Program-made: the position numbers and the translations under genes
From: a virus
IMG/VR virus record: IMGVR_UViG_3300027909_000035
DNA length: 46,186 nucleotides
Direction: 5' to 3' (one strand)
Part shown: positions 1-29,817 of the stretch, piece after piece
How positions within the stretch are numbered: the first letter of the stretch is position 1
Layout: the number at the start of each line of letters is the position of its first letter
Notes under the pieces: generated by a model
What the model saw: only the letters and a program-made list of their open reading frames with translations
Databases searched by the model: none
What the model was told of the DNA's origin: nothing

Positions 1-325
1 ATTTTCAAGATTCTTAGCTGATTGGTCCAAATCGGACAGTCACTCTGCGTATTGTAAAGTCTGTTTACTATTGCATTTTTATTCGTGGAGTATTAGTTAA
101 GGCAATTAATTGTTGCTCTAAACTAACTCGGCGTGCATCCATCGCGGCCTATTTTCCCTGGTCAAATGCCTGGAAGCATTGTAAAGAACCCTTACTTTTT
201 GGTAAACAGAGTTAGTTTTATGCATAAACTAAAGAATATTATTCCATTTACTCTGAGTAATGTCACACTGAGTAGTCGCGGTCTAAAGTGGACAGTCGAA
301 TTAATTATTGTGATAATTCTCACAC

Positions 326-357
326 AAATAAATAACCCTCCGGCCGGAACCGAAGGG
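326..357 (-). terminator. Rho-independent terminator (mirror of 45830..45861)
   Basis: Exact TIR mirror of the right-arm terminator. Confidence 0.5.
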
Positions 358-375
358 CTATCTAATTGGTTGCTG

Positions 376-600
376 TCAATCAGTGGCGTACTCGTCTCCG
401 GTCAGCTCCACACCCAAGGGTACCCATTCAACGCGGACGTGTTGGTTTGAGTCCTGCCAGCGAAATAGGGTGCTCAAAACCGTTTGCAGGTCAGGGTTTT
501 CGCCGAGAGAAGCTGTTCGGTCTATCCAGGGGTCGCCTGCCTTGGGGTCGGTGCCCCTCGACAGAATACGCCAGTCCCCTTGCCTACCAGGGATTACCAT
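376..600 (-). CDS. Hypothetical small protein (74 aa), TIR copy
   Basis: Exact mirror of 45587..45811 (+). Confidence 0.5.
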   Translation of the reverse strand: MVIPGRQGDWRILSRGTDPKAGDPWIDRTASLGENPDLQTVLSTLFRWQDSNQHVRVEWVPLGVELTGDEYATD

Positions 601-839
601 GGTTGCTCCCATACAGTCTTATAGATTGGTTCCTGCACTTTGCATGCGCCACAACGGTTTTCGGGTGTCTCATCGCGTACGGTAGTGGCGAATTCCTGCA
701 CCGCATCACACGCTGTCTGATAAAAAGCATCCCCGAACCCATACCCATCCACCACCAGGTGAGTGATTATAGGAGCGTCGGGGGGATTAATTGCCCCTCT
801 GCGCCAGGTGCCCTGTTCCATCGGCTTACTTTGTGGCAT
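594..839 (-). CDS. Small Cys-containing protein, GTWRR...RCxxC paralog B, TIR copy
   Basis: Exact mirror of 45348..45593 (+). Confidence 0.55.
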   Translation of the reverse strand: MPQSKPMEQGTWRRGAINPPDAPIITHLVVDGYGFGDAFYQTACDAVQEFATTVRDETPENRCGACKVQEPIYKTVWEQPW

Positions 840-1071
840 GCTTCCCACCGTCCTTAATCGCCTTGTAACAGCCAGGGCAACGCGGTGCGACGTCGTCCGG
901 CGTGGTGTCGTTGGTAATGAATTCCCTTCCACACTCAGCCAGCCAGGCTAGCCCGTCATTGAGGATGGCTCGGACCTTGTGAGCAACGTTGGCGGTGCCT
1001 GGTGCTGGTTTAAAGCAGGCTGTGAGCAGTCGTCGCCAGGTGCCCAACCGAACCCCATTCATTTCGACCAT
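826..1071 (-). CDS. Small Cys-containing protein, GTWRR...RCxxC paralog A, TIR copy
   Basis: Exact mirror of 45116..45361 (+). Confidence 0.55.
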   Translation of the reverse strand: MVEMNGVRLGTWRRLLTACFKPAPGTANVAHKVRAILNDGLAWLAECGREFITNDTTPDDVAPRCPGCYKAIKDGGKHATK

Positions 1072-1298
1072 CGTTTCCTCAGTCCCTCGATCTTCTCTCG
1101 ACCTTGCAGGATGTCTGAGCAGAGCCTGCACTTAACGGCAGCGTTTCCATTGTGTGGCAACAGATCTGCCCTCTCTGCCGATAGATGACTACAGATGGAT
1201 GTGTGCCAAGGCCCAGTGTGGTCAGCGGTAATCTCCATGTAGTGGGAAATGGTTTCCCGATTCGGTGACTGGTAACCGGCCTTGTACATCCACATCAT
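1059..1298 (-). CDS. Hypothetical small Cys/His-containing protein (79 aa), TIR copy
   Basis: Exact mirror of 44889..45128 (+). Confidence 0.5.
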   Translation of the reverse strand: MMWMYKAGYQSPNRETISHYMEITADHTGPWHTSICSHLSAERADLLPHNGNAAVKCRLCSDILQGREKIEGLRKRWSK

Positions 1299-1453
1299 TT
1301 TCTCCACAGCTTGAGGGCACTGGAGGTCAGCATGTAGACAGCCCAGCATTCCTCTTTCCCTCCCCATGAGTCGAGTGGGTAGGCTCCGGCAACTGCCGGT
1401 GAACCTAGAGCTTTCCGTTGTGCGGCAAGCTTTCTGGCCTCTGTCTGAGTCAT
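1295..1453 (-). CDS. Hypothetical small protein (52 aa), TIR copy
   Basis: Exact mirror of 44734..44892 (+). Confidence 0.4.
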   Translation of the reverse strand: MTQTEARKLAAQRKALGSPAVAGAYPLDSWGGKEECWAVYMLTSSALKLWRK

Positions 1454-1454
1454 A

Positions 1455-1691
1455 TCATTTCCTGCCCTCTGGCGTTGCCGTAGGAGCGGGTTGCCTGCCG
1501 GTCTGAAGCCCTGGTGAGGGTATGGGGCAGGTGTTCAGGTTAGGGTCTTCCGAGTAGCGGCATGTGGTGTGCTGAGGGGAGCGCTCGGGGTGCGCATCCC
1601 GTGGGATGGGACAACCGGCCAACAGCATGAGTAGCACCAGGGCAAAGGCGTAGGCCAGCAGGCGCAGCGTGAGATTGCATCGGAAACTCAT
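1455..1691 (-). CDS. Putative lipoprotein (78 aa), TIR copy
   Basis: Exact mirror of 44496..44732 (+). Confidence 0.6.
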   Translation of the reverse strand: MSFRCNLTLRLLAYAFALVLLMLLAGCPIPRDAHPERSPQHTTCRYSEDPNLNTCPIPSPGLQTGRQPAPTATPEGRK

Positions 1692-1840
1692 TTCTCTTCC
1701 TCCTGTTTGGCATAGCTGAGCGTGAGCACCTTTCCAGGGCACCATTTCCCCTGGTAGTAGTGCCGGTAGGGGTTGTAGACCTCAGTGCGACCGCAGTGGT
1801 TGCACCAAAAGATGTTGAGCGTGGCAGGCGGGACCCTCAC
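1688..1840 (-). CDS. Hypothetical zinc-ribbon-like mini-protein (50 aa), TIR copy
   Basis: Exact mirror of 44347..44499 (+). Confidence 0.35.
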   Translation of the reverse strand: MRVPPATLNIFWCNHCGRTEVYNPYRHYYQGKWCPGKVLTLSYAKQEEEK

Positions 1841-2031
1841 GACAGCTCGACCACCTTGTAAGCAACGGTACGGTTATCCATGCCTCGCGTGATGGATATT
1901 TCCTGCCGTATGGCGTCAACGGTCCTGTTGAGGGTCTGAGCGTCCGTGACCATCCCCTGAAACACCCAACCGTCCGGCAGGAACTCAGCAGCTCCACCTT
2001 TGAACTTGACGAACAATGCCCAGACTTTCAT
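1837..2031 (-). CDS. Hypothetical small protein (64 aa), first gene of the TIR operon, TIR copy
   Basis: Exact mirror of 44156..44350 (+); listed in the ORF track. Confidence 0.6.
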   Translation of the reverse strand: MKVWALFVKFKGGAAEFLPDGWVFQGMVTDAQTLNRTVDAIRQEISITRGMDNRTVAYKVVELS

Positions 2032-2071
2032 GTTGACCTCTTCCTCTGGAAACCTATTACAACCTAGTACC

Positions 2072-2101
2072 AGACTAGGTGACGTAGCTTATTCCTGTCA
2101 A
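2072..2101 (-). promoter_or_regulatory. Candidate sigma70-type promoter of the outward TIR operon (mirror)
   Basis: Mirror of 44086..44115 (TTGACA-N18-TAGTCT). Confidence 0.35.
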
Positions 2102-2357
2102 TGGATGATTGACCTAGTATTTCTGGGTGTCCAATGTGGACCCAGATTTTAATAGTTCGCCTCTGTGGGGGAGGAGCGAAACATCGAAGATCATCACTGG
2201 ACTTTTTCATTTAAGTTTATTTATTATTGCGCGCGTGATCTTGCACTAATAGTAAAGAGAATTAATTGTTGCTCCCAACGAAATAAATTGAGATATATAT
2301 CACAATATATATTAATCTAGCCGAATACATTTCGCAGAGTTGATCTTGGGGTGAGAT

Positions 2358-2491
2358 GGGTGTGCCAGGTGAGCACTTCCATATTGCTAGGGAACCAACG
2401 CATAGATGAGTATCAATTGTGTTTGTTTACCTCGTATCTAGCAGTTTGGTTTGCCTCACCTGGCGCACCCTCTCTCACCCCGATAGATGGT
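2358..2491. repeat. Long imperfect inverted repeat / 134-nt hairpin (mirror of 43696..43829)
   Basis: TIR mirror of the right-arm element. Confidence 0.6.
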
Positions 2492-2569
2492 CATCAATAA
2501 AATAGGGTATTAAAAATGAGGGTGCTCGAAATGAACACCCTCAAATTCATAACCGTCAAATTACCCCCG

Positions 2570-2651
2570 TCATTTTCTAATTCTTATGCCGCGCCAACCC
2601 TGATACCCGTGCCGGAGCGAGGCGGGTACGGGACGCTCAAGAGCGGGGACC
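2570..2651 (-). pseudogene. Orphan copy of the last 82 nt (27 codons plus stop) of the primase-helicase gene
   Basis: Mirror of 43536..43617, which is the 3' end of the intact 41320..43617 gene. The left arm has no gene body upstream of 2651. Confidence 0.85.
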
Positions 2652-2680
2652 TTTACCGGTACCCGGACCCATCGGGGCAT

Positions 2681-2704
2681 AGAAAAGCCTCCCCGTAGGG
2701 AGGC
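2681..2704 (-). terminator. Rho-independent terminator of the leftward operon
   Basis: GCCTCCC-CGTA-GGGAGGC hairpin (2687..2704), followed on the minus strand by TTTTCT. It lies 6 nt downstream of the stop of 2710..2880 (-). Confidence 0.6.
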
Positions 2705-2709
2705 AATTA

Positions 2710-2880
2710 TTAGTCTTCAATTTCCGCCATATCCCATGGCGGTTTGTTCATTGCCGCTCGATGTGCCATATGGGTTTTAGTATGTTTGTCAGCGTATTCA
2801 GTCGGAGCAAGCACGCCGCGATTTACCGCTTCCTGATAGTAGTCTCGCCATGTCTCGATGAAATATTCTTCGCGTGTCAT
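2710..2880 (-). CDS. Hypothetical small protein (56 aa; MTREEYFIETWRDYY...)
   Basis: Hand-translated ATG..TAA ORF below the track cutoff. It starts 2 nt after the stop of 2882..3367 and has a terminator just downstream. Confidence 0.45.
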   Translation of the reverse strand: MTREEYFIETWRDYYQEAVNRGVLAPTEYADKHTKTHMAHRAAMNKPPWDMAEIED

Positions 2881-2881
2881 C

Positions 2882-3367
2882 TCACATCCCCTTCAGAGCG
2901 TCGCTGGCAAGCTGACCGGTATATGGGTGACGTACACAAACCCGCTCGCTGTTCATCAGGCTACCGCGCGTCTGACCCTTGCCGACAACCTCAAACCAGC
3001 TATCGTCACCCAACTGGTCAAGGCTGACAAGGCCAGGCTTGACATTATAATCCCAGACAGCCAAGCCATGTGTGATTGGGTGACCATCGGAAGTGTACCC
3101 GTTGAAGTGAGCTACCAGCACAGCACAACCCTTGTAGTGGAAGATTTTCGGAGTAGGGCATGTGCAACCCTCTTCCGCCTCCTCTTGCGCCACAAGCTTC
3201 ATCAGCTCGAAAGGTGCCTTGCCGCTCAGGGCTTTGCCGATATCTTCAAGGATTGCCTCCACAACCATGGCGTCAGTAATGGGATTGTTCATTTTCTTGG
3301 GAGCATCCATTAGCTTGTTCGCGAGGTCGAGTACTGCCTGAAGGTTGGCGCGATCTATCTTGTTCAT
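2882..3367 (-). CDS. Hypothetical protein (161 aa)
   Basis: ORF track. AGGGAG RBS about 6 nt upstream of the ATG. Preceded by the conserved 18-bp motif. Confidence 0.7.
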   Translation of the reverse strand: MNKIDRANLQAVLDLANKLMDAPKKMNNPITDAMVVEAILEDIGKALSGKAPFELMKLVAQEEAEEGCTCPTPKIFHYKGCAVLVAHFNGYTSDGHPITHGLAVWDYNVKPGLVSLDQLGDDSWFEVVGKGQTRGSLMNSERVCVRHPYTGQLASDALKGM

Positions 3368-3379
3368 TTTGATCTCCCT

Positions 3380-3397
3380 AATTGTAAAGAAAGTTTT
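3380..3397 (-). promoter_or_regulatory. Conserved 18-bp motif AAAACTTTCTTTACAATT (copy 1 of 3)
   Basis: Perfect 18-mer also at 6592..6609 (+) and 13857..13874 (+). It contains TACAAT (-10-like) and lies directly upstream of the RBS of 2882..3367. Confidence 0.55.
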
Positions 3398-3409
3398 ATT
3401 TTTGATTAG

Positions 3410-3443
3410 GCAGGGGGCACATCGTCGAGCGGTGCACCCCTGC
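3410..3443. terminator. GC-rich hairpin (11 bp with one bulged A), possible bidirectional terminator
   Basis: GCAGGGGGCAC...GTGCACCCCTGC. TTTTAT follows on the plus strand. It lies 10 nt downstream of the stop of 3454..3750 (-). Confidence 0.45.
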
Positions 3444-3453
3444 TTTTATGAAA

Positions 3454-3750
3454 TTAGATCGCTGCGTGACCGGCGTAGACGTTGCCCTGCAAGATTGCCC
3501 AGTGCATGACACGATTCCATTCCTCACTGTGCGTTGCGTAGTTGTCGCACTCAAGAATCATGTTTTCCCAACGGCTGATGGCAAGCCCCCAACGGCGTGT
3601 CCGGCCAAGAGGCTTCAGGTTGCGGATCGCCTTGACCACCTTGCCGACCGTGATCTCTGGCCGGACTTGGTAGTCGTTGTCAGGGTCGATCGCAAGGTCG
3701 GTGATCGCTCTAATAGCGTCGAAGCGCTTCTGCTGGGCTGCTGTTGTCAT
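3454..3750 (-). CDS. Hypothetical protein (98 aa)
   Basis: ORF track. Possible TTGACA-N18-TATTGT promoter upstream on the minus strand (about 3755..3790). Confidence 0.6.
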   Translation of the reverse strand: MTTAAQQKRFDAIRAITDLAIDPDNDYQVRPEITVGKVVKAIRNLKPLGRTRRWGLAISRWENMILECDNYATHSEEWNRVMHWAILQGNVYAGHAAI

Positions 3751-3796
3751 GAAGAGAACAATACGGTTCTGTGAGCGATATTGTCAAGCCAAATCT

Positions 3797-3829
3797 ATAA
3801 AAAAGAGAAACCCCCTGCTAGAGGGGGTT
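3797..3829 (-). terminator. Rho-independent terminator
   Basis: AACCCCCT/AGGGGGTT 8-bp stem (3809..3829), followed on the minus strand by TTTCTCTTTTT. It lies 5 nt downstream of 3835..4005 (-). Confidence 0.6.
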
Positions 3830-3834
3830 ATCTC

Positions 3835-4005
3835 CTAGAAGCCTTCTCCGTCTTCCTTGGCTATCCGTTGGAGGGTGGCTGTTATCTTGGCCAAAACCAC
3901 TTCCGGCCGTTTGCCTGCCTCCCCGATGTAGTCCAGTAGGTCTGTGGCGAGCTTCCAGCGCGCATACCTGGCGACCAACTGTGTACGGGTTTCCTTGGTG
4001 CCCAT
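3835..4005 (-). CDS. Hypothetical small protein (56 aa; MGTKETRTQLVARYARWK...)
   Basis: Hand-translated ORF. Its ATG overlaps the TGA of 4005..4271 (ATGA coupling). Confidence 0.45.
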   Translation of the reverse strand: MGTKETRTQLVARYARWKLATDLLDYIGEAGKRPEVVLAKITATLQRIAKEDGEGF

Positions 4006-4271
4006 CACTTACCTTTCTTCTCCTTCAGCACCCGAGGCTTCCTGAGTATCTGTCGTGGTAGAACGAAGATCTCTATACCGACGTCCCCGTGTAAAAGCTC
4101 TCCTGACTCATCGAATTTCATGTCCTTGGTCGAGTGCCCCTCTGCTCGTGCTATCGCCTCAGCGGCGAACTCAGCCTGGCTACGGGTGCCGTATATCTCA
4201 ACCTCACCCAGTCCCTGTTCACCAGCGACCACTAGCACGTAAACCAACTCCTGCACTCCCGCTCTAGGCAT
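4005..4271 (-). CDS. Hypothetical protein (88 aa)
   Basis: ORF track. Overlaps the neighbouring genes at both ends. Confidence 0.6.
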   Translation of the reverse strand: MPRAGVQELVYVLVVAGEQGLGEVEIYGTRSQAEFAAEAIARAEGHSTKDMKFDESGELLHGDVGIEIFVLPRQILRKPRVLKEKKGK

Positions 4272-4482
4272 CGTGCTTACCTCGCTTCCAGTTTTTGCCT
4301 CTGTACCACTTGGATACCTGCTTACGACTGAAGACCGGTGCCCCGCTGATATGGGTCAGGGGTTCCGGGAAATCCGTATACCTGGTGCGCCAATTGCTGA
4401 TAGTGGCCGGAATGACCTTGTACTTCTTGGCCAGATCCCCCACTCCAACCATGTCCACCAGTGCCCATTCCTTGAGTGGCAT
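4264..4482 (-). CDS. Helix-turn-helix DNA-binding protein (72 aa; MerR/excisionase-like HTH)
   Basis: ORF track. The segment VGDLAKKYKVIPATISNWRTRY resembles a short HTH of Xis/MerR type. Confidence 0.55.
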   Translation of the reverse strand: MPLKEWALVDMVGVGDLAKKYKVIPATISNWRTRYTDFPEPLTHISGAPVFSRKQVSKWYRGKNWKRGKHDA

Positions 4483-4634
4483 TAATTTTCCCTCTCTGAG
4501 TGTTGGTGCCCACCAAGCCGCTTGAGTGCTCTGATGAGCTGATCACGCCTGCCGAGCCTGGTTATCGAGCTAGCACCTATCGCTCTGGCGTACTCCCTCA
4601 GTTGCTTGAACGTCATGTTGTCCAAGGGGTTCAT
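4482..4634 (-). CDS. Small protein (50 aa) with a Rho-N/SAP-like motif
   Basis: Hand-translated: MNPLDNMTFKQLREYARAIGASSITRLGRRDQLIRALKRLG... TAATG overlap with the next gene. First gene of the leftward operon. Confidence 0.45.
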   Translation of the reverse strand: MNPLDNMTFKQLREYARAIGASSITRLGRRDQLIRALKRLGGHQHSEREN

Positions 4635-4757
4635 GCTCTGTCCTCTCTGAAGTTGTCAACGATCGAGCTTGTAACCACCGTACACACATCCCGTTCAAGA
4701 TCGCAAACGTTACTTTCAGAAGTTGGGAAAGCGCTTCCCACTCGATAAATTACTTTA

Positions 4758-4774
4758 AGTCATGTCCGTTTTGT
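4758..4774. promoter_or_regulatory. Operator-like repeat AGTCATGTCCGTTTTGT (copy 1)
   Basis: Identical 17-mer at 4903..4919. Both are preceded by AATTA(A)CTT(T)A. The ATGTCC core also occurs at 4792, 4832 and inverted at 4977. Confidence 0.5.
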
Positions 4775-4902
4775 GAAAACGATCTTGCGAAATGTCCGAA
4801 TATTATAAAAGTTTTGCTTCACAACTCGAAAATGTCCAAATTAAATAGATTTGAGGCTAGTACTTTCGTTCAAGAAAATACGTTCCGGGAATGAATTAAC
4901 TT

Positions 4903-4919
4903 AGTCATGTCCGTTTTGT
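4903..4919. promoter_or_regulatory. Operator-like repeat AGTCATGTCCGTTTTGT (copy 2)
   Basis: See copy 1. It lies in the divergent intergenic region. Confidence 0.5.
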
Positions 4920-5063
4920 AATATCTAAAGATCGCTAACTCTCTGAGTAAATTACTTTAGAGTTCCTATCAAAATAGGACATACTGGGTTCGTTTTGAAT
5001 AGCAATTCCGAGGCTAATCAAATTCGAATTGAATTGCCTTATGAATTCCCTGGTAAAAGGCTA

Positions 5064-5092
5064 TTGCAATTACTACTCACAGACCCTATTAT
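5064..5092 (+). promoter_or_regulatory. Candidate sigma70-type rightward promoter
   Basis: TTGCAA (5064..5069) - 17 nt - TATTAT (5087..5092). Confidence 0.45.
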
Positions 5093-5395
5093 CTTCTTCA
5101 TAAGTTAATAGCGCGCGAGCCACTCCGCACTGGAGAAATGGCTAGGGAAGTTAAGGAAGCGTCGCCGAGTAAAGATCCCGAATCGTAGTGCTGGCAAGTG
5201 CCAGTGAATTAGAACTTGCGAGATATGGGCAGTGATACGGCGCGGTACCGGAAACGAAGCCCCTAGTGCACACCAGGAACCCGAGAGGGTTTGGCCGAGA
5301 AAACCTAGATCGCGGCAAACAGCAACATCCCCCAACAAAAGCTATTGCTTTGCACCTAAAACCTTCCCTGCACCAAACGTCCTAAGGAGACGGAA

Positions 5396-5977
5396 ATGAA
5401 CACTGCCAAGCTCATCACCAAGGCCTACTTCTTCGGCGCACTGTCCATCAGCTTCACGCACATCATCACCTCTGCTCACAAGATGGGCGGCGAGGGTTAC
5501 GAGCCATACATCGCGCCTTTCATGGTGGATGGCGTTGCCCTGCTGGGCATGCACATGCGGAACGAGAAATATGACGACCGTACCAACAAGATCGGTCTGT
5601 GGGCGCAGAGCACTGCTGGCCTGCTCTCGCTGGCCATGAACGTTCACGCCGCACACAGCCTCTTCGGAATGCTGCTGGGCATCGGCGTTGTGGTGCTCTT
5701 CCTGGTCACTGAGTGGATGGCCGGAAACATCAGGCTCCGCACGGATAGCGAGGCTGAGAAAGCCAAGGCTGCCAGTGCTGCCGCTGCCGCTCAGGCACAG
5801 GCGATCATCGACGCTGCCAACGCTTGGATGAGCGCTTGCACTCACCCGACCAAGTGTGACAGTGCCGACCGCTGCCAGACCAAGCGGGATGCTGCCGCGA
5901 AGCGCGCCAAGACGAACAAGCGCAACGCTCGCAAGGTTGCCGCTGAGAAGCGGGTACTTGAGGGAATGATGAACTGA
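5396..5977 (+). CDS. Membrane protein, DUF2637-like (193 aa)
   Basis: AAGGAGA RBS. Several hydrophobic helices, an APFMVDGVALLG motif, and an Ala/Lys-rich C-terminal tail. Confidence 0.7.
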   Translation: MNTAKLITKAYFFGALSISFTHIITSAHKMGGEGYEPYIAPFMVDGVALLGMHMRNEKYDDRTNKIGLWAQSTAGLLSLAMNVHAAHSLFGMLLGIGVVVLFLVTEWMAGNIRLRTDSEAEKAKAASAAAAAQAQAIIDAANAWMSACTHPTKCDSADRCQTKRDAAAKRAKTNKRNARKVAAEKRVLEGMMN

Positions 5978-5992
5978 GGCTGAAAGGAATTA

Positions 5993-6023
5993 CCCCCTGG
6001 ATTCGTCCGGGGGGTTTTTCTTT
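5993..6023 (+). terminator. Rho-independent terminator
   Basis: CCCCCTGG...CCGGGGGG stem followed by TTTTTCTTT. Confidence 0.65.
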
Positions 6024-6103
6024 GCCCTCATCTGGGAGCGCTCCCATGGCTTGCCCTAATCAAGGCTTCCAAGAGGACGATCGACAATTGATGTTGGTCT
6101 GAA

Positions 6104-6577
6104 ATGGCCTGTACACTCCCCGCCATGCCGAAGAAGAAAGCCAAGGGTGCGAGTGCGGCAAATCTTGAGTTGATTACTGCTATTGCCAGTCGTCAATGGA
6201 CCGCCAAGGAACTATCAAAGATTTTCAATATGAGCGTGCCGGAGCTAAAGGTATTCGTTGAAGCACATCTTGATCGAATTGAGGAAGCCAGGGAGGTTTA
6301 CGATGCGCTTGAGGCTGAGGCGCCTGCCGACATCGGCGAGCTATGGATAGCGCAGAAGCTAGAGCGTCTGAGAAGGCTTCAGAGCGTCGCAGAGGTACTT
6401 TACGAGGGTGCCATAAGGACATACGACGCTACGATCCTCAGGGAGCTTAGAAGCTATCTAGCGCTCGCCTCCAATGAGCTTGGCCAACTGATGCACAGAG
6501 GGTCCGGCGAAAACGCCGATGGCGCGGTAGCAAATTACTTGATCGATGGTGTGGACGTGAACGCGGATCTTAAATAA
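6104..6577 (+). CDS. Putative terminase small subunit / HTH DNA-binding protein
   Basis: ORF track (alternative start 6125, MPKKKAKG). N-terminal HTH-like segment WTAKELSKIFNMSVPELKVF plus a helical region. Sits upstream of the large terminase. Confidence 0.45.
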   Translation: MACTLPAMPKKKAKGASAANLELITAIASRQWTAKELSKIFNMSVPELKVFVEAHLDRIEEAREVYDALEAEAPADIGELWIAQKLERLRRLQSVAEVLYEGAIRTYDATILRELRSYLALASNELGQLMHRGSGENADGAVANYLIDGVDVNADLK

Positions 6578-6591
6578 AATTAACTGTAAAT

Positions 6592-6609
6592 AAAACTTTC
6601 TTTACAATT
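6592..6609 (+). promoter_or_regulatory. Conserved 18-bp motif AAAACTTTCTTTACAATT (copy 2 of 3)
   Basis: Perfect copy 15 nt upstream of ATG 6625. Confidence 0.55.
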
Positions 6610-6624
6610 TCCGGAGTGGACCTA

Positions 6625-6954
6625 ATGGTAAAGAGAATTAACAGAAACCCTGACGCCAAGTCACGTTTCAACGCATTCATGCACTTACGGATCAACTTAC
6701 CAGCCAGGGTGGAAATCATTACCGCTGAGGAAGGCACGTATTTCCGCATTAAAGTCGAGGCTGGTCCCGCTCAGATAGTCACGCTTGAACTGACCAACGT
6801 TAGGGACACCCAAGTACGTGAGCATGTCGGCACGTTCACGGAAGGGGAGGATACTGAGCACACTAACGACTCACAGCCTAAAAAAGTTCAACCTCCTACA
6901 CGACCCGATAAATTGCCGGAAGCACCACCCTCACCTAGAGGGGCAACGAAGTAG
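6625..6954 (+). CDS. Hypothetical protein (109 aa)
   Basis: ORF track frame (6616 is GTG). ATG 6625 has a GGAG 8 nt upstream. Confidence 0.6.
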   Translation: MVKRINRNPDAKSRFNAFMHLRINLPARVEIITAEEGTYFRIKVEAGPAQIVTLELTNVRDTQVREHVGTFTEGEDTEHTNDSQPKKVQPPTRPDKLPEAPPSPRGATK

Positions 6955-6966
6955 GAGGGGAAGACA

Positions 6967-8448
6967 ATGAGCGCGCCAACGGTGCCGAAATCCAGACACC
7001 AGCAACGAAGAGAGCGTGACGCACGCCGGAAAATCATTCAACACAGGTATTCACCGCGTGGCGCCTGTAAAGAGATATTTCACATCAAGGATGCTGAGCT
7101 TCTGATCTCTGGTCCGGCTGGTACGGGTAAAAGCCGTGCCTGTTTGGAAAAGATGCTCATGGTGTGCCTGGCAACAGCAGGAGTGCGTGCGCTCATAGTC
7201 CGGAAAACGCTTTCCTCACTTGCTTCAACAGCCTTGGTCACCTGGCGAAAATACGTGGCCAAAGAAGCCATAGCCGTTGGGGATGTTCATTACTACGGTG
7301 GCTCAAGGGAAGAGGCGCCACAGTACCGCTTCAAGAATGGGTCTTCCATCACCATTGGCGGCATGAACCATGCCGACCGCATCATGTCTTCCGAATACGA
7401 CATTATCTATGTCCAGGAAGCAACAGAGCTTTTGGTGGATGACTTGGAAGCTCTCAATACCCGTTTGCGTAACTGGCAGATAGGTTTCCAGCAGCTCATC
7501 ATGGACTGTAACCCTGCTGGCGCAACGCACTGGCTCAAGCTCCGTTGTAACGAGGGCAAGACAACACTCATCGAGTCCCGCCATGAGGACAATCCTGTTC
7601 TCTTCGACGAAACCACCACACCTGATGGTGTCACATACAAGCTCACGGACAAGGGTACAACTTACATCTCCAAGCTGGACAACCTGACCGGCGTTCGCAA
7701 GCAAAGATTGCGTTATGGCAAATGGGTTTCCGCCGAAGGGCAGATATACGAAGAGTTCGATCCCGCATACCACGTGCTTGAGTGGAGCTATGACGAAGAC
7801 GGCAACCGCCTTCCTCTTCCTGAGTCATGGGAACGCTACTGGGTAATAGATTTCGGTATGGCACATCCGTTTGTCTGCAAGTGGTATGCGCTCGATGAAG
7901 ACGGCGTTGCCTACATGTATCGAGAAATATACATGACCAACCGCACTATCGCTGAGCACGCAGTGACCATCATGGAGCAAGTCACAAAACAGGTGGCGGT
8001 TGAGTGGTACGACCATTTCAACAGGGTCACACGTAAGCGGGTGGAAACCGTTTGGACAGAACCGAAACCAACCGCCATAATCTGCGATCATGACTTGCAG
8101 GCCAGGCGGACCTTTGAGCGCGCAACGGGTTTGGGCACAACAGCCGCTGTGAAAGACGTTGCAGAGGGAATAGACCTCACAAAGCAACGGTGGAAACTGA
8201 ATGCTGAAAGCGAATCCAAGTTGTATTACATGGAAGACACGTTGGTAGAGCGTGATCCCGAGTTGGTGGACAAGGTGTTGCCGACGTGTTCAATGGAAGA
8301 GGTCTCTTCCTATGTTTGGAAGAAAACCAATGATGGCAAGATAAAAGACGAACCGGTGAAGGAAAACGATCACGGTATGGACACAGATCGATATTTCACC
8401 ATGCACATAGACTTCAAAGGCAAAGCAAGGTTTACCGTACTCGACTAG
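6967..8448 (+). CDS. terL: Terminase large subunit
   Basis: 493 aa. Walker A at ISGPAGTGKS, Walker B-like IIYVQEA, and a C-terminal nuclease-like region ending ...DHGMDTDRY. Confidence 0.9.
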   Translation: MSAPTVPKSRHQQRRERDARRKIIQHRYSPRGACKEIFHIKDAELLISGPAGTGKSRACLEKMLMVCLATAGVRALIVRKTLSSLASTALVTWRKYVAKEAIAVGDVHYYGGSREEAPQYRFKNGSSITIGGMNHADRIMSSEYDIIYVQEATELLVDDLEALNTRLRNWQIGFQQLIMDCNPAGATHWLKLRCNEGKTTLIESRHEDNPVLFDETTTPDGVTYKLTDKGTTYISKLDNLTGVRKQRLRYGKWVSAEGQIYEEFDPAYHVLEWSYDEDGNRLPLPESWERYWVIDFGMAHPFVCKWYALDEDGVAYMYREIYMTNRTIAEHAVTIMEQVTKQVAVEWYDHFNRVTRKRVETVWTEPKPTAIICDHDLQARRTFERATGLGTTAAVKDVAEGIDLTKQRWKLNAESESKLYYMEDTLVERDPELVDKVLPTCSMEEVSSYVWKKTNDGKIKDEPVKENDHGMDTDRYFTMHIDFKGKARFTVLD

Positions 8449-8461
8449 GAGAAGATCGACG

Positions 8462-8746
8462 ATGCACAAACGACCCAGTATGCATAGAGTCGCGTTAATG
8501 AACTTGGCCAAACTCCTTATGGAGTACGCCGACAATTCCCAAGCAACCACGGGTGCAAGCCTTCTAAGGAATATAGTGCGCATCCTGTTTGACCTCGCTG
8601 GATTTGCCCTCTTGACCATAGCGGGTTTTACCGTATCCTCCCTGGCAGGCTTCATCGTGGCTGGTCTTTCGTGCTTTCTGCTGGCACGGCACCTGACCAC
8701 CAAGGAAAAAGCAACAGATGTAGATCCATTGATGAGACGTACCTAA
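8462..8746 (+). CDS. Small membrane protein (94 aa, about 2 TM)
   Basis: ORF track. AGGAGAAG RBS and two hydrophobic stretches. Confidence 0.6.
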   Translation: MHKRPSMHRVALMNLAKLLMEYADNSQATTGASLLRNIVRILFDLAGFALLTIAGFTVSSLAGFIVAGLSCFLLARHLTTKEKATDVDPLMRRT

Positions 8747-8756
8747 AGGGGTGATC

Positions 8757-10055
8757 ATGCGAAGTTTCGCAGACCGTGTGATTGATGGGGGGTTGCGTGC
8801 GCTCAGAAACCTAGCTGGTCCCCCGGTACCGTTCAGCGGTAGAAGGCAAGGCTTTTCAAGCATGTTGGACGGTGGGGACACGGGAATCATGGAGCGTGCT
8901 TACGACGCTTATGGTTCCGTGGGAACACTTTTCGCCATCGTCAGCCAGTTGGGAAACGCTTTTGCCAGTACGCAATGGCACTTGTATCGGAAAAGCTCTG
9001 TGCGAGATCTGGCACGCCGTAAGGAAGTCACCGACCACGCGCTAGTCACCGTTTGGAACCGACCGAATAGGTTCTACACGGGAAGGCTTTTCAGGGAAAC
9101 CGTTCAGCAGCACATCGATTTGGTGGGCGAGGGTGTGATCGTGCTGACGATGATTGGTAACCTTGTGGTTGAGATGTGGCCGGTTAGACCTGACCGTATC
9201 CATCCTGTGAAGCACCCAACCAAATTCCTCACTGGGTACATCTATCGTGCTGACGATGGTGAGGAAGTGCCACTCACGCTAGACCAAGTGATTCACATCA
9301 AGCTCCCGAATCCACGTGACCCCTACAGGGGCATGGGTCCGGTGCAAGCTGTGTTGGCGGACATTGACGCTGCAAGGTTCTCAGCCGCTTGGAATCGTAA
9401 TTTCTTCATCAATGGTGCCAGGCCAGGTGGCATCATCGAAGTTGATTATAAAATGAACGATACCGAATTCAATGACTTCCTCCGGCGTTGGCGCCAGCAA
9501 CATCAAGGGGTTGCCAATGCTCATCGTGTGGCAGTGCTAGAAAACGCCAAGTGGCATGATACCAATTTCTCCATGGCAGACATGCAGTTTGTCGAGTTGC
9601 GTAATCTACCAAGGGAACTGATTCGGGAAGCGTATGCGTTCCCTAAGCCAATGCTTGGCACTGTGGATGATGTCAACCGCGCGAATGCCGATGCTGGCAA
9701 AGAAGTGATGGCGGAGAACCACACGATCCCGCGCTTGGAACGTTGGTCGGACATGATTAACGCGGAGTTGCTTCCGCTGTTTAGCAATGGTCCCAATTTG
9801 GTGTTCGAACCGGATGATCCTACGCCGGTCAATCATGAAGCAAAGGACAGAGAGCGCGACAGCAAGACCAAGGGAGCGCTCAATCTCGTTAACGCAGGAT
9901 TCAATGGGTCTGATGCTGCTGAAGCTATGGGACTTCCTGAAATGCGTTGGGAGAAACTAGTTAAGGCACCACCAACAGCACCAAAACCAAGTCCGTCCAG
10001 TGAGGACAGTGATGCTGGTGCCCGTGCTGTGATCGCGCACGCCGGAACACATTAG
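8757..10055 (+). CDS. Portal protein (HK97-type family)
   Basis: Track ORF 8751..10055 (8751 is GTG; the in-frame ATG 8757 follows AAAGGGG). Size and position between terminase and protease fit a portal. Confidence 0.85.
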   Translation: MRSFADRVIDGGLRALRNLAGPPVPFSGRRQGFSSMLDGGDTGIMERAYDAYGSVGTLFAIVSQLGNAFASTQWHLYRKSSVRDLARRKEVTDHALVTVWNRPNRFYTGRLFRETVQQHIDLVGEGVIVLTMIGNLVVEMWPVRPDRIHPVKHPTKFLTGYIYRADDGEEVPLTLDQVIHIKLPNPRDPYRGMGPVQAVLADIDAARFSAAWNRNFFINGARPGGIIEVDYKMNDTEFNDFLRRWRQQHQGVANAHRVAVLENAKWHDTNFSMADMQFVELRNLPRELIREAYAFPKPMLGTVDDVNRANADAGKEVMAENHTIPRLERWSDMINAELLPLFSNGPNLVFEPDDPTPVNHEAKDRERDSKTKGALNLVNAGFNGSDAAEAMGLPEMRWEKLVKAPPTAPKPSPSSEDSDAGARAVIAHAGTH

Positions 10056-10064
10056 GAGGGGAGA

Positions 10065-10919
10065 GTGATGATAAACAAGCACACACGGGCATTGCTGGAT
10101 TTCAAATCCAAGTTGTTTGACCGAGTCCAGTTGCGTAATGCTGACCTGGCACACGCGTTGAGGGATATTCGCCTTGACTGGTACCGAATTTCCAACGTGG
10201 CAGAGGATGAGGAAAAGGCAGAGGTCTTCATCTATGATGAAATCGGCGGATCGTTCGGTGTGGACGCAACCGAATTCGTTACGGAGCTTAAGGCCCTGGA
10301 CGTGAAGGAAATCACGGTTCGCATCAATTCACCAGGCGGAAGCCTGTTTGACAGCATCGCAATTCACAACGCATTGGTGCAGCACAAGGCGAAAATCATT
10401 ACTCGCATAGATGCGCTGGCAGCCTCGGGAGCGTCAATCATTGCTATGGCCGGTGATGAAGTCGAGATGATGAACGGCTCACAGCTCATGATTCATGACG
10501 CGTTGGGTTTTGAGCTTGGTAACGCCGCTGCTTTCGAGGCCATGGCAAGGTTCCTGAACTTGCAATCAGACAACATTGCCGATATGTACAAGGCAAGGGC
10601 AGGCGGGACACGTGAGGAATGGCGCTCTCGCATGCTGGCGGAAACGTGGATGTTTGCCGATGAAGCAATTGAACTTGGATTGGCTGACAAGGTGTACGTG
10701 AAGCCTGCCCCACCCGATGACGGTGAAGAAGAAATCGTTACGGAGGTCGAGAACACGGTATCTGAGGAATTGGATATCTCAGCGCTCATCATCCGACCGC
10801 ATCGTGTTGACAATCGTGGGTTCAAGTACGCGGGTCGTGAGGATGCCCCATCCCCTGTCAACTCATCAGATCCATGGAATGAAGTTCGTGCCCTAGTGGC
10901 CACTTGGAAAGAAAGGTAA
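10065..10919 (+). CDS. Prohead protease, ClpP/S14-like
   Basis: INSPGGSLFDSIAIHNAL, AASGASIIAMAGDE and MIHDA are ClpP-family signatures. AGGAGGGGAG RBS. Confidence 0.85.
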   Translation: MMINKHTRALLDFKSKLFDRVQLRNADLAHALRDIRLDWYRISNVAEDEEKAEVFIYDEIGGSFGVDATEFVTELKALDVKEITVRINSPGGSLFDSIAIHNALVQHKAKIITRIDALAASGASIIAMAGDEVEMMNGSQLMIHDALGFELGNAAAFEAMARFLNLQSDNIADMYKARAGGTREEWRSRMLAETWMFADEAIELGLADKVYVKPAPPDDGEEEIVTEVENTVSEELDISALIIRPHRVDNRGFKYAGREDAPSPVNSSDPWNEVRALVATWKER

Positions 10920-10927
10920 AACACATC

Positions 10928-12262
10928 ATGGCAAAACGAGTTGCTATGCCGACCACGGGTGAGGAACTTCGCGAAGTTCTCATGGACCCTAAGGCAATGA
11001 AGGAATTGATGGCCGATCCCGAGGCGCACGCCGACTTCATCGAGGATCACATCAACCTTCGGCTCAAGTACGACCCTTCGCTGCTGGACCAGAACAAGGA
11101 AGCGCACGAGAAATTCATGGTGGAGTGGTTGCGGGACAATGGCGCAACTGAGCATAACCCACTGAACTTCGATCCGAACTCGCGTCGTCCTGTGAAGACA
11201 AACACGCTCTACAACAAAGGCGCTACTGGTGCGAAGTTCGACAAGACATTTGATTCATTGGCTCAGTTCACCTTTGATCTCAGTAATCACAGTCTGAGGA
11301 CACCCGAACTGTCTCAGAAGCTCATCGGCTTGCAGAACGTGGCAAGCTCACTTGAACCTTCTGACGGTGGGTTCCTGATTCCGGAAGACTTGCGCGCGAT
11401 GGTGCTTCAAATCGCGCTTGAGACAGCAATCGTTCGTTCGCGTGCGCGGGTCATCCCCATGGATTCGCTTCGCGTCCCGATTCCCTCAGTGGACTCTACG
11501 TCCAACGTGTCTTCGGTCTTTGGCGGAATAATCGGTTTCTGGACGGAGGAAGGCGCAACGCTCACTGAGTCCAAGCCTCGCTTCGGTCGGATTGTGCTTG
11601 AGGCGCACAAACTCACGTTGTACGTGGAAGTTCCCAATGAACTGATGCGGGATTCACGTCCGGCGTACACCACTTTCATTGACACCATGTTCCCCGAGGC
11701 GATTGCTTGGTTTGAGGATGTGGCGTTTTTCGTAGGTGGTGGTGTCGGTGAGCCGTTGGGCTTCCTGAACGCGCCTGCCGCGATCTCAACGACCCGCACA
11801 GGTGCTTCTACCGTCGATTGGGAGGAAGTTGTATCCATATACGCGCGCATGCTGCCTCAGTCACTTGGGCGTGCCGTATGGGTGGTTTCTCCAGACGTGC
11901 TTCCGGAACTTCTTACCATGGTTATTTCCGGCGGCACTTCGCCAATCTGGATTGGTGGAGGCGGTTTCCCCAACGCGTCCATGGCGCCTCCAATGTCGAT
12001 GCTCGGCGCACCTTTGATCGTGTCTGAAAAGGCGCGTGCACTGGGCACCGCTGGTGACATCAACTTTGTTGATTTCGGGCACTACCTGATCGGTGACCGT
12101 CAGGCCATGTCCGCGCGGCAGAGTGAGGATTTCCGCTTCAATCAGGACGTGACTGCAATTCGTGTCATCGAAAGGCTTGACGGCCGTCCCTGGCTTCAGG
12201 CTCCCATCACTCCGCAAAACGGTGGCGCGACGCTTTCCCCGTTCGTTCGCCTTGCCGCATAA
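10928..12262 (+). CDS. Major capsid protein, HK97-fold type, with N-terminal delta-like region
   Basis: Track ORF 10904..12262; the ATG at 10928 starts MAKRVAMPTTGEEL. Follows the protease. About 445 aa. Confidence 0.85.
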   Translation: MAKRVAMPTTGEELREVLMDPKAMKELMADPEAHADFIEDHINLRLKYDPSLLDQNKEAHEKFMVEWLRDNGATEHNPLNFDPNSRRPVKTNTLYNKGATGAKFDKTFDSLAQFTFDLSNHSLRTPELSQKLIGLQNVASSLEPSDGGFLIPEDLRAMVLQIALETAIVRSRARVIPMDSLRVPIPSVDSTSNVSSVFGGIIGFWTEEGATLTESKPRFGRIVLEAHKLTLYVEVPNELMRDSRPAYTTFIDTMFPEAIAWFEDVAFFVGGGVGEPLGFLNAPAAISTTRTGASTVDWEEVVSIYARMLPQSLGRAVWVVSPDVLPELLTMVISGGTSPIWIGGGGFPNASMAPPMSMLGAPLIVSEKARALGTAGDINFVDFGHYLIGDRQAMSARQSEDFRFNQDVTAIRVIERLDGRPWLQAPITPQNGGATLSPFVRLAA

Positions 12263-12272
12263 GGATTCTTTC

Positions 12273-12356
12273 ATGCTCGGAATGGTATTCCTGACACTCC
12301 ATCTTCTAATTGGATCGTCGCTCCTTTACGGGATCAAGATTGGTAGGCGAGAATGA
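12273..12356 (+). CDS. Possible hydrophobic micro-protein (27 aa)
   Basis: MLGMVFLTLHLLIGSSLLYGIKIGRRE. Its stop overlaps the ATG of 12353 (ATGA). AAGGA lies upstream. Confidence 0.25.
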   Translation: MLGMVFLTLHLLIGSSLLYGIKIGRRE

Positions 12357-12871
12357 GAGCACTTGGCAGGTTGCTTGACATCAGCGTTGGCATCAACAAT
12401 GTCGCAGATCTAGCGGCTGGTGCCAACACTGGCAAGCGTATCCACATGCGAAACTACGAAACCCTTGGCATTCTGTTCATGAAGAACGCCGCTTCAGCGG
12501 GTGCCGATGATGTCGTTATCACTCTGCAAGAGCACAACGCCAACACAGCGGGTACGTCACAGAACCTTGCGGCTATCACCAAGTGGTACCGCAAGAATGT
12601 GGCTTCCCCATTGCTGGGTACTGAAACATGGACTGAGACCACGCAAGCGGCAGGCGCGACTCTGACGTTGGCTGGTGCCACGTTCGCAACGCATCAGATG
12701 CTTGTCTTCTTCGAGATCGAGGCAGCATCGATGAGCGCAACCTTCGAATGGCTTTCCATCAACATTGCCGATCCTGGCGTTGGTGGAACAATTCTGGGTG
12801 GTGCTATATACGTTCCGCACGGTCTGAAGATTCAGCGTCGGCCAGACCTGCTAGCACAGCCGAATGCGTGA
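12353..12871 (+). CDS. Hypothetical head-module protein (possible decoration protein)
   Basis: ORF track. Position is immediately after the capsid gene. Confidence 0.65.
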   Translation: MRALGRLLDISVGINNVADLAAGANTGKRIHMRNYETLGILFMKNAASAGADDVVITLQEHNANTAGTSQNLAAITKWYRKNVASPLLGTETWTETTQAAGATLTLAGATFATHQMLVFFEIEAASMSATFEWLSINIADPGVGGTILGGAIYVPHGLKIQRRPDLLAQPNA

Positions 12872-12876
12872 GTGCC

Positions 12877-13167
12877 ATGGCGAAAATTACCAAGGCTGGC
12901 GGACCCTCCTACGATCCCGAACCTGAGGAACCCAAACGGGTACCCATCAACCGGCCGATGCTCGGCGTGGTGCCTGAGAAGGTCGAAACCGTTTCTCCGG
13001 AAGCGTTTGACAAGTTCGTCCGTGAAGCTGAGTCCGTCGAAATCGTTTCCACTGAACTGGATTCGGAACCTGAGAACGGCAAGAAGGAAGAGAAGGACGA
13101 GTTTGCCGACTTCGACGAAAAGCCGAAGACAACAGCAGTGAAGAAGTCCGCTACCAAGAAGAAGTGA
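12877..13167 (+). CDS. Hypothetical acidic/lysine-tailed protein (96 aa)
   Basis: ATG 12877 within track ORF 12748..13167; starts MAKITKAGGPSYDPEPEE... Confidence 0.55.
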   Translation: MAKITKAGGPSYDPEPEEPKRVPINRPMLGVVPEKVETVSPEAFDKFVREAESVEIVSTELDSEPENGKKEEKDEFADFDEKPKTTAVKKSATKKK

Positions 13168-13173
13168 GCAGCC

Positions 13174-13854
13174 ATGACCACCATTCAAGCCTTTGATGCG
13201 CCAACCAACACAGACTTCAATGGTGGTCCCGCTGTGTTCGGAAACGACTTCAGTGCCAACGCACCAGGGTTGTTGACCGGAGTGTGGTACTACCATGAGA
13301 GCGACAACGAACCCTCTTCGGTAACAGCCCTGGTGCATCGCGAGTCAAATCATCAATTGCTAAGTCAGAAAACAAGTTCCACCGTTGCCATGGCAAACGA
13401 TGCCTACAATCTCATAACCCTTGATCAGGCTGTGGAGTACGCAACGCCGGACGAAGTTCTGACCGTTAGTGTGTATTGGCCACTAGGCGGTTTCTCGTTC
13501 GCTACCGGCGTAGGCGAGCGCTCGACTGAGGGACTGTCGATAAACATTGGGGACATAGGCCGCTTCAAGAATTCCGCTGTGACACTTGGGGATTATCCCA
13601 CTCAGACGCTTGCTTTGCTGGCCTGTCCCGTAGGTGTGGAATTCACTTTCACGGGCGAGGCTGCCCCTACTGTAGGTGGCTGGTACCAACTGCTTTCCAT
13701 CAGGAGGGAGCAGCAGGAGATCATAAGGCAGAACCAGGCAACACCCCCTCAAGCGTGTCCGAACGACGGTGAGCCGTTGCAGCGTATAGGCTCTGTGCTT
13801 CATTGCCCCTTCGATGGCTGGCAGTGGCCTAGAGATGGCGACGGCATTAAGTAA
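13174..13854 (+). CDS. Hypothetical protein (226 aa) with a C-terminal Cys-pair zinc-ribbon-like tail
   Basis: ORF track. C-terminal segment ACPNDGEPLQRIGSVLHCPFDGWQWP. Confidence 0.65.
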   Translation: MTTIQAFDAPTNTDFNGGPAVFGNDFSANAPGLLTGVWYYHESDNEPSSVTALVHRESNHQLLSQKTSSTVAMANDAYNLITLDQAVEYATPDEVLTVSVYWPLGGFSFATGVGERSTEGLSINIGDIGRFKNSAVTLGDYPTQTLALLACPVGVEFTFTGEAAPTVGGWYQLLSIRREQQEIIRQNQATPPQACPNDGEPLQRIGSVLHCPFDGWQWPRDGDGIK

Positions 13855-13856
13855 AC

Positions 13857-13874
13857 AAAACTTTCTTTACAATT
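13857..13874 (+). promoter_or_regulatory. Conserved 18-bp motif AAAACTTTCTTTACAATT (copy 3 of 3)
   Basis: Perfect copy 33 nt upstream of ATG 13908. Confidence 0.55.
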
Positions 13875-13907
13875 AAATATCCGTCTAGTCAGAAAGCAGA
13901 CTAAGAA

Positions 13908-15807: not shown

Positions 15808-15820
15808 GAGGTGAAAGCTA

Positions 15821-17064: not shown

Positions 17065-17065
17065 G

Positions 17066-17281: not shown

Positions 17282-17286
17282 CCACA

Positions 17287-17706: not shown

Positions 17707-17710
17707 TGAG

Positions 17711-18124: not shown

Positions 18125-18143
18125 AAGGGAGGTCGGCAGAGAG

Positions 18144-24399: not shown

Positions 24400-24400
24400 C

Positions 24401-27676: not shown

Positions 27677-27677
27677 C

Positions 27678-29726: not shown

Positions 29727-29817
29727 CACCAGGTAAACACCATGTTGACAGCAATTCGGGCAGCCTGTAGCGTCGTTGCCCACCTGCACCAAACCGATTT
29801 TAGGAGGATGTACCCCG

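Follow-up and report, generated by a model that had tools for sequence, protein, structure and literature searches.

The 46,186-nt viral genome IMGVR_UViG_3300027909_000035 (the window, i.e., the whole stretch of DNA analyzed here) is probably the complete or nearly complete linear genome of an uncultured soil siphovirus that carries kilobase-scale terminal inverted repeats (TIRs) and whose tips are hairpin or palindrome axes. A comparison of bases 1-2651 to the reverse complement of bases 43536-46186 showed 0 mismatches, confirming the perfect 2,651-bp TIR described in an initial annotation of this DNA. The inner edge of the repeat is sharp (154 of the 200 positions just beyond it mismatch), and a perfect inverted match of 2,651 nt is not attributable to chance. 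TIRs are typical of protein-primed invertrons (phi29/PRD1/adenovirus), where they typically measure 6-300 bp and are far shorter than the 2,651 bp found here. The orientation of the repeat is inverted, not direct as in the terminal repeats of T7/Dagobah-type phages.

The right TIR boundary (43535|43536) falls within the gene for a PrimPol/D5 primase-helicase (41383-43617), and 82 nt at its 3' end, comprising 26 codons and the stop, are within the repeat. Because the end of the primase gene is inside the repeat, the left arm holds a dead, 82-nt 3' gene fragment at its inner edge (2570-2651, minus strand). This was seen by tblastn with the primase C-terminus, whose last 26 residues occur, inverted, at the start of contig L003 (mapping to 2570-2651). 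The inner end of the right arm, i.e., the primase 3' end, adjoins the left unique region as its reverse complement. From the junction outwards, each arm consists of the primase 3' end, a terminator, an AT-rich spacer with a conserved element, an operon, a strong terminator, and a noncoding tip.

Recovery of Both Junctions in Other Assemblies

Further assemblies of the same phage were found at 99.9-100% identity. The left junction (2651|2652) occurs independently in contigs L003 and L006 and the right junction (43535|43536) in L001, L007, and L009; the ENA assemblies among these may be re-assemblies of the JGI reads. L003 (window 2511-18448) is the left part of a 41,166-bp MEGAHIT k141 contig in ENA ERZ27257771; this part alone was sequence-checked, and the total length fits window 2511-43676, that is, the unique region with 141 nt of arm on either side. 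L006 (JGI 3300006880; window 4075 to 16) spans the left junction and L007 (ENA ERZ27257739; window 43337-46183) the right one, each reaching the tip, while L009 (JGI 3300006969) crosses the right junction and a JGI contig of sample 3300006845 stops 120 nt into the right arm. A contig made of the repeat only (L008; window 2651 to 3) is on record in ENA, JGI, and Logan, for three samples in all. Both TIR junctions are real sequences present in several libraries, and the TIR is not a one-off assembly artifact.

Contigs that reach the tip end at window position 1, 3, 4, or 16, none of them continuing past it. Dead-end tips of this sort behave as a physical end or an unreadable hairpin, unlike a repeat boundary that is missing a single-copy segment. 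A variant strain carries single-nucleotide polymorphisms (SNPs) at TIR positions 614 and 2305 (mirror positions 45573 and 43882); contigs L006 (left arm) and L007 (right arm) have both, and L009 has the 2305 SNP. These shared SNPs are consistent with identical arms in the variant strain, arising either by concerted evolution or by repeat collapse during assembly. One JGI contig of the same phage (Ga0075421_100000615) begins at window 5620, inside the gene at 5396-5977 and not at the TIR; strain variation in the intergenic/left-operon region (4635-5600) is one possibility for this break. Exact-match scans for the tip in IMG/VR and JGI metagenome contigs, in collections that lack the source contig and its sisters, returned none, and nucleotide BLAST of the TIR plus 24 kb of the genome produced no match among GenBank phages.

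Recurrence of the Architecture in Relatives

Homologues number in the hundreds for the primase and >5,000 for the terminase (E < 1e-30), many of them on contigs of 37-43 kb, the latter count not being the number of genomes that share the TIR architecture. Primase relatives in IMG/VR were found by an alignment-based scan, a single-protein scan having given none. One relative, with 81% amino-acid identity, comes from sample 3300019884. Over its first 110 nt, the left contig of this relative (L025) matches the right contig (L104) in reverse complement, and the TIR boundary lies 83 nt before the primase end, vs. 82 nt in the window. A 41,130-bp genome from the same sample (Ga0193741_1000023; IMGVR_UViG_3300019884_000003), whose primase is 55% identical, has a perfect 1,121-bp TIR composed of ~457 nt from the 3' end of the primase gene plus 664 nt that appear to be noncoding.

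An inverted primase 3' fragment stands at the extreme left of contigs L025, L027, L032, L033, L035, L039, L040, L042, and L043, and contigs of this kind run on into terS/terL. Many right-end contigs of relatives end ~120-150 nt past the inferred junction in the primase gene, and the inverted segments of four left/right contig pairs are 100% identical. Within the clade at 55-64% identity, the junction point in the primase lies ~150 aa before the stop codon, and at the left end the junction is just ~0.4-0.5 kb upstream of terS. TIRs of relatives are 1.1-1.8 kb long: those of L010, L035, and L040 (55-64% identity) measure 1.1-1.2 kb and comprise the primase 3' end plus apparently noncoding DNA, and that of the L166 phage, for which both junctions were recovered (L042 and L158), measures ~1.84 kb. 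The TIR architecture is therefore family-wide, among members sharing only ~55% primase identity. Genomes of the family are repeatedly broken at the repeat boundary, into unique contigs of 38-42 kb and separate repeat contigs of 1-4 kb, and because of this the completeness and abundance of the family are easily misjudged.

Two further relatives of 38.7-38.8 kb, L028/L017 (IMGVR_UViG_3300046719_000006) and L036/L011 (IMGVR_UViG_3300032144_000031), terminate no more than 3 nt from the homologous counterpart of the window's right TIR junction and start ~60-90 nt before a leftward terminator, resembling the left junction of the window. No inverted overlap was seen between the two ends of either genome.

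Fold-Backs at the Outward End of the Repeat

To characterize the tips, we scanned both ends of ~200 fetched loci for terminal fold-backs with arms of at least 20 nt. Only four distinct contigs, from four different datasets, had one, in every case at the outward end of the repeat; no fold-back of this length occurred at the other locus ends. The arm is 27 nt in L035, where TCTATATATAATA and TATTATATATAGA meet with a loop of 0 nt; 36 nt in L146, where TATATAC and GTATATA enclose the loop GAA, closed by C-G; 48 nt in L166, where the loop ATAC separates GTGTAGTA from TACTACAC; and 95 nt, with one mismatch, in L142, where the 8-nt loop TGAACTTC lies between TATTATA and TATAATA. All four stems are TA-rich, and the C-GAA-G of L146 is well known as a DNA mini-hairpin of very high stability. 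Since the four fold-backs lie exactly at the outward end of the repeat, the tips of these relatives are, to judge by their sequences, hairpin or palindrome axes. Furthermore, blunt, identical ends ligated tip to tip cannot give a 3-nt loop or an asymmetric loop of 4 or 8 nt, and such loops therefore point to a terminal hairpin or a replicated inverted-dimer junction. Pox/rudivirus-like, head-to-head replication, as suggested in the initial annotation, gains indirect support from these small-loop fold-backs.

The sequence AAATCGGACA is common to the window (29-38) and L035, where it lies ~39 nt from the axis, and this offset suggests that the window is short of ten or more (~10-30) terminal bases. 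Single-stranded DNA (ssDNA) folding of the window's tips was only modestly better than that of shuffled sequences (z = -1.75 and -2.45). A GGACAGT motif near several tips was considered and dropped, since it was not enriched (9 found vs. 6 ± 2.5 expected).

Candidate Enzymes for Making the Ends

Pfam and PHROG scans were performed on the replication, left-arm, and TIR proteins and on most structural proteins, with precomputed Pfam calls used for the portal, protease, and capsid. Within this set no family B polymerase (PolB), terminal protein, protelomerase (TelN/TelK/ResT-type), or HUH Rep was recognized, in agreement with the initial annotation, which had listed none of the first three; since terminal proteins are poorly conserved, failure to recognize one is weak evidence. 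Tap and Tpg were likewise not recognized in these scans, and could be supplied by the host. The only large unassigned proteins are structural, namely a 345-aa protein of the head-tail region and a 1,172-aa tail protein.

Two candidates for processing of the ends were found. The large terminase (TerL; 6967-8448, plus strand; Pfam Terminase_3 and Terminase_6N) has ATPase and nuclease regions. Its family profile matches the PDB large terminases 5oe8 and 5oea up to profile position 465, nuclease region included (E = 8e-16 and 3e-15), and Asp is invariant at positions 295, 374/376, and 468/472. TerL thus appears to keep its nuclease domain, and cleavage during packaging would be expected. The second candidate is a protein encoded at 39556-40188 (plus strand) that the initial annotation had called RuvC-like. 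Its AlphaFold model (pLDDT 84.9) bears out a RuvC fold, with the top Foldseek matches being RuvC of Deinococcus and Thermus, RuvC of Lactococcus phage 67, and the MOC1 resolvase (E down to 1e-5). Residues D14, E85, and the nearly invariant D148/H155, placed by expected position, are compatible with a RuvC-type active site. The window is thus predicted from the model to encode a Holliday-junction resolvase, as pox- and rudivirus-type replicons do.

Alternative Explanations

The fold-backs and the dead-end tips could also arise, though this seems unlikely, from a variant of lambda-like replication in which a circle or head-to-tail concatemer contains one giant perfect palindrome (arm-axis-arm) that terminase cuts at a symmetric cos site on the axis. 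The ends would then be open or self-cohesive, and neither a hairpin-ended molecule nor an inverted concatemer would be involved. A terminase with a nuclease region and the location of terS/terL beside the left arm, as in cos and direct-terminal-repeat phages, fit this scheme; tip-to-tip sequences like those of the relatives would be expected from an arm-axis-arm junction as well, and the tips are dead ends in all assemblies. However, the asymmetric centers of 3, 4, and 8 nt resemble hairpin loops (though a fixed asymmetric center is conceivable), and no contig passes the axis far enough to reach past the second arm. In addition, owing to SbcCD, bacterial replicons do not readily maintain perfect palindromes of 2-5 kb.

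Less probable still is a true invertron, in which covalently attached terminal proteins, either phage-encoded and unrecognizable or of the host Tap/Tpg type, cap the ends and PolA patches them. Such a replicon would agree with the kilobase-scale TIR, with the actinobacterial affinity of TerL and the major capsid protein (MCP), both closest to those of Dagobah, and of the C-terminal half of the primase, and with the many uncharacterized open reading frames (ORFs), including one for a conserved 260-aa protein with an invariant Tyr; the window's own contigs, which do not fold back, also agree with it. Small-loop fold-backs in four relatives, by contrast, are unexpected for protein-capped ends, none of PolB, terminal protein, Tap, or Tpg was recognized, and the 260-aa protein has no informative fold match. 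Moreover, the tips are AT-rich and fold only modestly as ssDNA, whereas the archetypal telomere palindromes of Streptomyces are GC-rich. The label "invertron" used in the initial annotation, which implies terminal-protein capping, is therefore not supported: no terminal protein was recognized and the ends of relatives fold back. Finally, an assembly product, either a fold-back chimera or a chloroplast-like circle (inverted repeat-large single copy-inverted repeat) that lost its small single-copy segment, is very improbable, for even though assemblers emit an inverted repeat at both contig ends of a repeat-flanked segment and repeat collapse would give identical arms, both junctions recur across several samples and assemblers, divergent relatives sampled in other studies have the architecture as well, the tip is always a dead end within 16 nt, and where contigs do pass the tip the "single-copy segment" amounts to 0-8 nt.

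Several observations weigh against the reading with hairpin-type ends. The contigs of the window phage itself (MEGAHIT k141, JGI assembler, and Logan) show no fold-back, and for this reason its hairpin ends are deduced from relatives at 55-64% identity. The fold-backs of those relatives could stem from replicative junctions only, the virion ends being open, or could reflect snap-back self-priming during library preparation, a process that would itself need self-complementary ends. RuvC-like resolvases are common in ordinary phages, and the enzyme that makes or resolves hairpins is only a candidate here. Arm identity within one assembly is partly due to repeat collapse, which lowers the weight of the shared SNPs, and Dagobah, the closest cultured relative of the virion module, has direct terminal repeats. 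With these points taken into account, the best supported overall reading is a pox/rudivirus/N15-like linear genome with hairpin-forming ends that replicates through tip-to-tip junctions, which terminase, the RuvC-like enzyme, or both would resolve.

Proposed Mechanism

For such a linear genome, replication would start from internal or TIR-borne origins, using the PrimPol-D5 helicase and the split PolA. Hairpin or self-complementary ends would then give rise to inverted dimers or concatemers, linked at their tips like those of poxviruses, rudiviruses, Borrelia, and N15, with each junction being a palindrome that contains two inverted copies of the terminal region. Unit genomes could be freed by cutting at the axis, where the terminase nuclease would act on a symmetric, cos-like site or, alternatively, the RuvC-like resolvase would act on a cruciform extruded at the TA-rich center; the terminase nuclease is an equally good candidate for the cutter. 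Identical arms would place the same recognition site at left-left and right-right junctions, a plausible reason for the TIR to exist, and recombination between the arms would keep them identical. The inner boundary could creep only into the primase 3' end, leaving a harmless fragment at the left end, as creep the other way would destroy the primase. This would explain why all located boundaries are inside the primase gene, at two positions.

It is quite possible, although we advance it tentatively, that a large, widespread, and probably actinobacterial family of soil siphoviruses has hairpin-ended chromosomes with kilobase-scale TIRs but without a protelomerase, PolB, or terminal protein, and that the ends are made from tip-to-tip palindromic junctions either by terminase, in the role of a telomere resolvase or a cutter of symmetric cos sites, or by the RuvC-like resolvase.

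Contents of the Arms and the Adjoining Left Region

Each arm ends in an AT-rich noncoding tip (1-328; mirror 45859-46186) of 36% GC over 1-330, with no convincing ORF, which is presumed to form the hairpin terminus. Several sigma-70-like promoter matches occur in this tip, past the operon terminator (178-317), and two of them (266 to 238 and 206 to 178) face outward to the tip, where there is no gene. They are reminiscent of the promoter-like telomere resolution sequences of poxviruses, but are only ~2x as frequent as expected by chance.

Inward of the tip, an intrinsic-terminator-like hairpin (329-364, minus strand; mirror 45823-45858, plus strand), consisting of a 16-bp stem followed by a T run, closes an outward operon of ~8 small ORFs of 50-96 aa (376-2031, minus strand; mirror 44156-45811, plus strand). 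This operon was recognized by its ORF chain and codon scores, and the gene calls of JGI and ENA are concordant. Among its products is a proline-rich lipoprotein with an LLAGC lipobox (mirror 44496-44732). Pfam and PHROG returned nothing informative for the operon's proteins, the only match being a weak, Rz-like spanin match (E = 0.006).

A conserved noncoding element lies at 2120-2210 (plus strand; mirror 43977-44067), with the 25-nt core ATCGAAGATCATCACTGGACTTTTT at 2183-2207. Besides the window, the ~90-nt element was found in nine loci (L010, L030, L035, L130, L131, L139, L144, L159, and L167). Eight relatives differ from its core by 0-3 mismatches and the ninth (L030) by 5, while the primases are only ~55% identical. 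The orientation of the element relative to the primase is constant in all loci, and it lies 3' of the primase stop codon wherever a locus includes the primase gene. The element is a candidate origin, packaging site, or regulatory site. We also considered an RNA gene, an idea left unsupported by RNAalifold, which found almost no consensus structure on either strand.

Nearer the tip, a diverged direct copy of 2183-2282 occurs at 31-126 (plus strand; local alignment score 64 vs. 25 ± 4 for shuffles) and carries a degenerate version of the conserved core motif. The 96-nt diverged direct repeats (31-126 and 2183-2282) thus flank the ~2-kb operon in each arm. No such ORF chain was evident in the TIRs of L010, L035, and L040, and because the examined TIRs of relatives show no counterpart, the operon looks like a lineage-specific insertion into an ancestral short TIR like those of the relatives. 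Since the operon is absent from the TIRs of these three relatives at 55-64% identity, it is not the purpose of the TIR, and the suggestion that either end presents the same outward operon upon entry into the cell is speculation.

A second terminator lies within the TIR, 3' of the primase gene (2517-2543, minus strand; mirror 43644-43670, plus strand). Just inside the left junction is a lineage-specific operon of seven small genes (2687-4634, minus strand; genes running from 4634 to 2710), whose own terminator (2687-2704) stops 36 nt short of the TIR junction. No tRNA was found in a scan of the whole window, and Rfam yielded a single, sub-threshold match over 1-5500.

Replication Module

The primase-helicase (41383-43617, plus strand) contains PrimPol, D5_N, and DUF5906 domains (Pfam E = 4e-21, 3e-16, and 2e-18, respectively) and is the last gene of the unique region, crossing the right junction; the exact protein is on record (P0001). 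The replication/recombination module itself (26894-39273, plus strand) includes SNF2 (27795-29726), a PD-(D/E)XK nuclease (30716-31741), AAA_24 (32234-33064), an SSB-like protein with an acidic tail, UDG (35073-35669), and a family A polymerase (PolA) in two parts, the exonuclease/N-terminal part at 35647-36825 and the C-terminal part at 38425-39273. Pfam and PHROG thereby upheld the replication set assigned from the sequence at the outset (split PolA, PrimPol/D5, SNF2, PD-(D/E)XK nuclease, and AAA_24). The same PolA split is found in relatives L001, L002, and L104. Between the PolA halves of the window are five or six small ORFs, one of which encodes a SLOG/DprA-like protein of 162 aa.

At the head of the module is the gene for the conserved, 260-aa Zn-ribbon protein. 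Its model is good locally (pLDDT 86.6) but has a pTM of only 0.40, and as a candidate terminal or telomere protein it was set aside, since no PDB match was informative (best E = 0.018, a SAWADEE domain). A 236-aa protein (29818-30528) has lysine-rich ends, an ~80-residue block rich in Asp and Glu, a pI of 4.6, and no family match. For its length it has the top codon score of the whole genome, and the protein may mimic DNA or be chaperone-like.

Virion Module and Likely Host

Pfam confirmed that the window is a tailed phage, with terminase, portal (a precomputed call), and HK97-type capsid all recognized as initially annotated. A candidate small terminase (6125-6577, plus strand) lies directly upstream of TerL; it has sub-threshold, HTH-like Pfam similarity only, and is syntenic by tblastx with Dagobah 1366-1650. 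A ClpP-like protease (10068-10919) precedes the HK97-type MCP (PF05065; 10928-12262), and the 345-aa protein (13908-14945), which has no family match, is probably a tail or head-tail protein.

The closest cultured relative of the virion module is the Streptomyces phage Dagobah (MT711977), with TerL 47.5% and MCP 44.9% identical. From terS to the tail fiber, window 6100-24400 is syntenic with 1366-19142 of this siphovirus. Dagobah has a 1,187-bp direct terminal repeat with small genes just upstream of terS/terL, a layout like that of the window family. It differs in that its repeats are direct, not inverted, and in its replication module. Streptomyces "plasmids" with a 43%-identical TerL proved to be unrelated, circular, phage-like records of 100 kb.

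Sequences sharing 43-50% identity with the C-terminal half of the primase occur in Saccharopolyspora, Kitasatospora, Nocardioidaceae, Mycolicibacterium, and a metagenome-assembled genome (MAG) of unclassified Actinomycetota. Because of this resemblance to actinobacterial genome sequences, the host is likely a member of the Actinomycetota. Other MAG labels, e.g., Binatia and Eisenbacteria, probably reflect binning noise.

Comparison with Known Systems

Poxviridae and Rudiviridae have linear dsDNA with kilobase-scale inverted terminal repeats and covalently closed hairpin termini. The window family resembles them in its kilobase-scale, perfect TIRs with variable inner boundaries, in the small, AT-rich terminal loops deduced for relatives L035, L146, L166, and L142, in encoding a predicted RuvC-fold resolvase, and in the tip-to-tip junctions that are implied. 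It differs in its virion, which is that of a terminase/portal/HK97 tailed phage, and in its replication proteins, a split family A polymerase plus PrimPol-D5 vs. PolB in poxviruses or HUH Rep in rudiviruses; furthermore, the hairpins here are deduced from sequence. Phages N15, PY54, phiKO2, and VP882 are terminase-type tailed phages whose DNA can be linear with hairpin ends derived from a palindromic site. However, they encode a protelomerase, whereas none is recognizable in the window, and the halves of their telomeres share only tens of bp vs. the repeats of 1.1-2.65 kb in the window family. Their virion DNA has cos ends that are permuted relative to the telomeres, while the linear map of the window ends at the axis.

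Terminal-protein-capped replicons, i.e., phi29/PRD1 and those of Streptomyces, are also linear with TIRs, which in Streptomyces can reach kilobases. The window differs in having no recognized PolB, terminal protein, Tap, or Tpg, and its relatives have fold-back ends; in phi29-type phages, in addition, packaging proceeds without a nuclease-bearing terminase. Our literature search found no described terminase-type tailed phage with kilobase-scale TIRs, its "long ITR" (inverted terminal repeat) matches being phi29-like Rountreeviridae (~100-bp repeats), Borgs, and eukaryotic viruses. Casjens and Gilcrease, as quoted in PMC4569894, distinguish six kinds of tailed-phage ends: cohesive ends, circularly permuted direct repeats, short exact direct repeats, long exact direct repeats, host DNA ends, and terminal protein. 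A terminase-packaged genome with kilobase-scale inverted repeats and hairpin-type tips fits none of these six and, if true, would add a seventh class to that scheme of tailed-phage chromosome ends.

It would also be a bacterial counterpart of poxvirus/rudivirus replication. If confirmed, the biochemical question would be which enzyme makes the ends without a protelomerase, and the replication logic of poxviruses, rudiviruses, and Borrelia/N15 would be tied to ordinary HK97-type phages. Linear replicons with hairpins and TIRs are already known; it is the virion class in which this one occurs that is unexpected.

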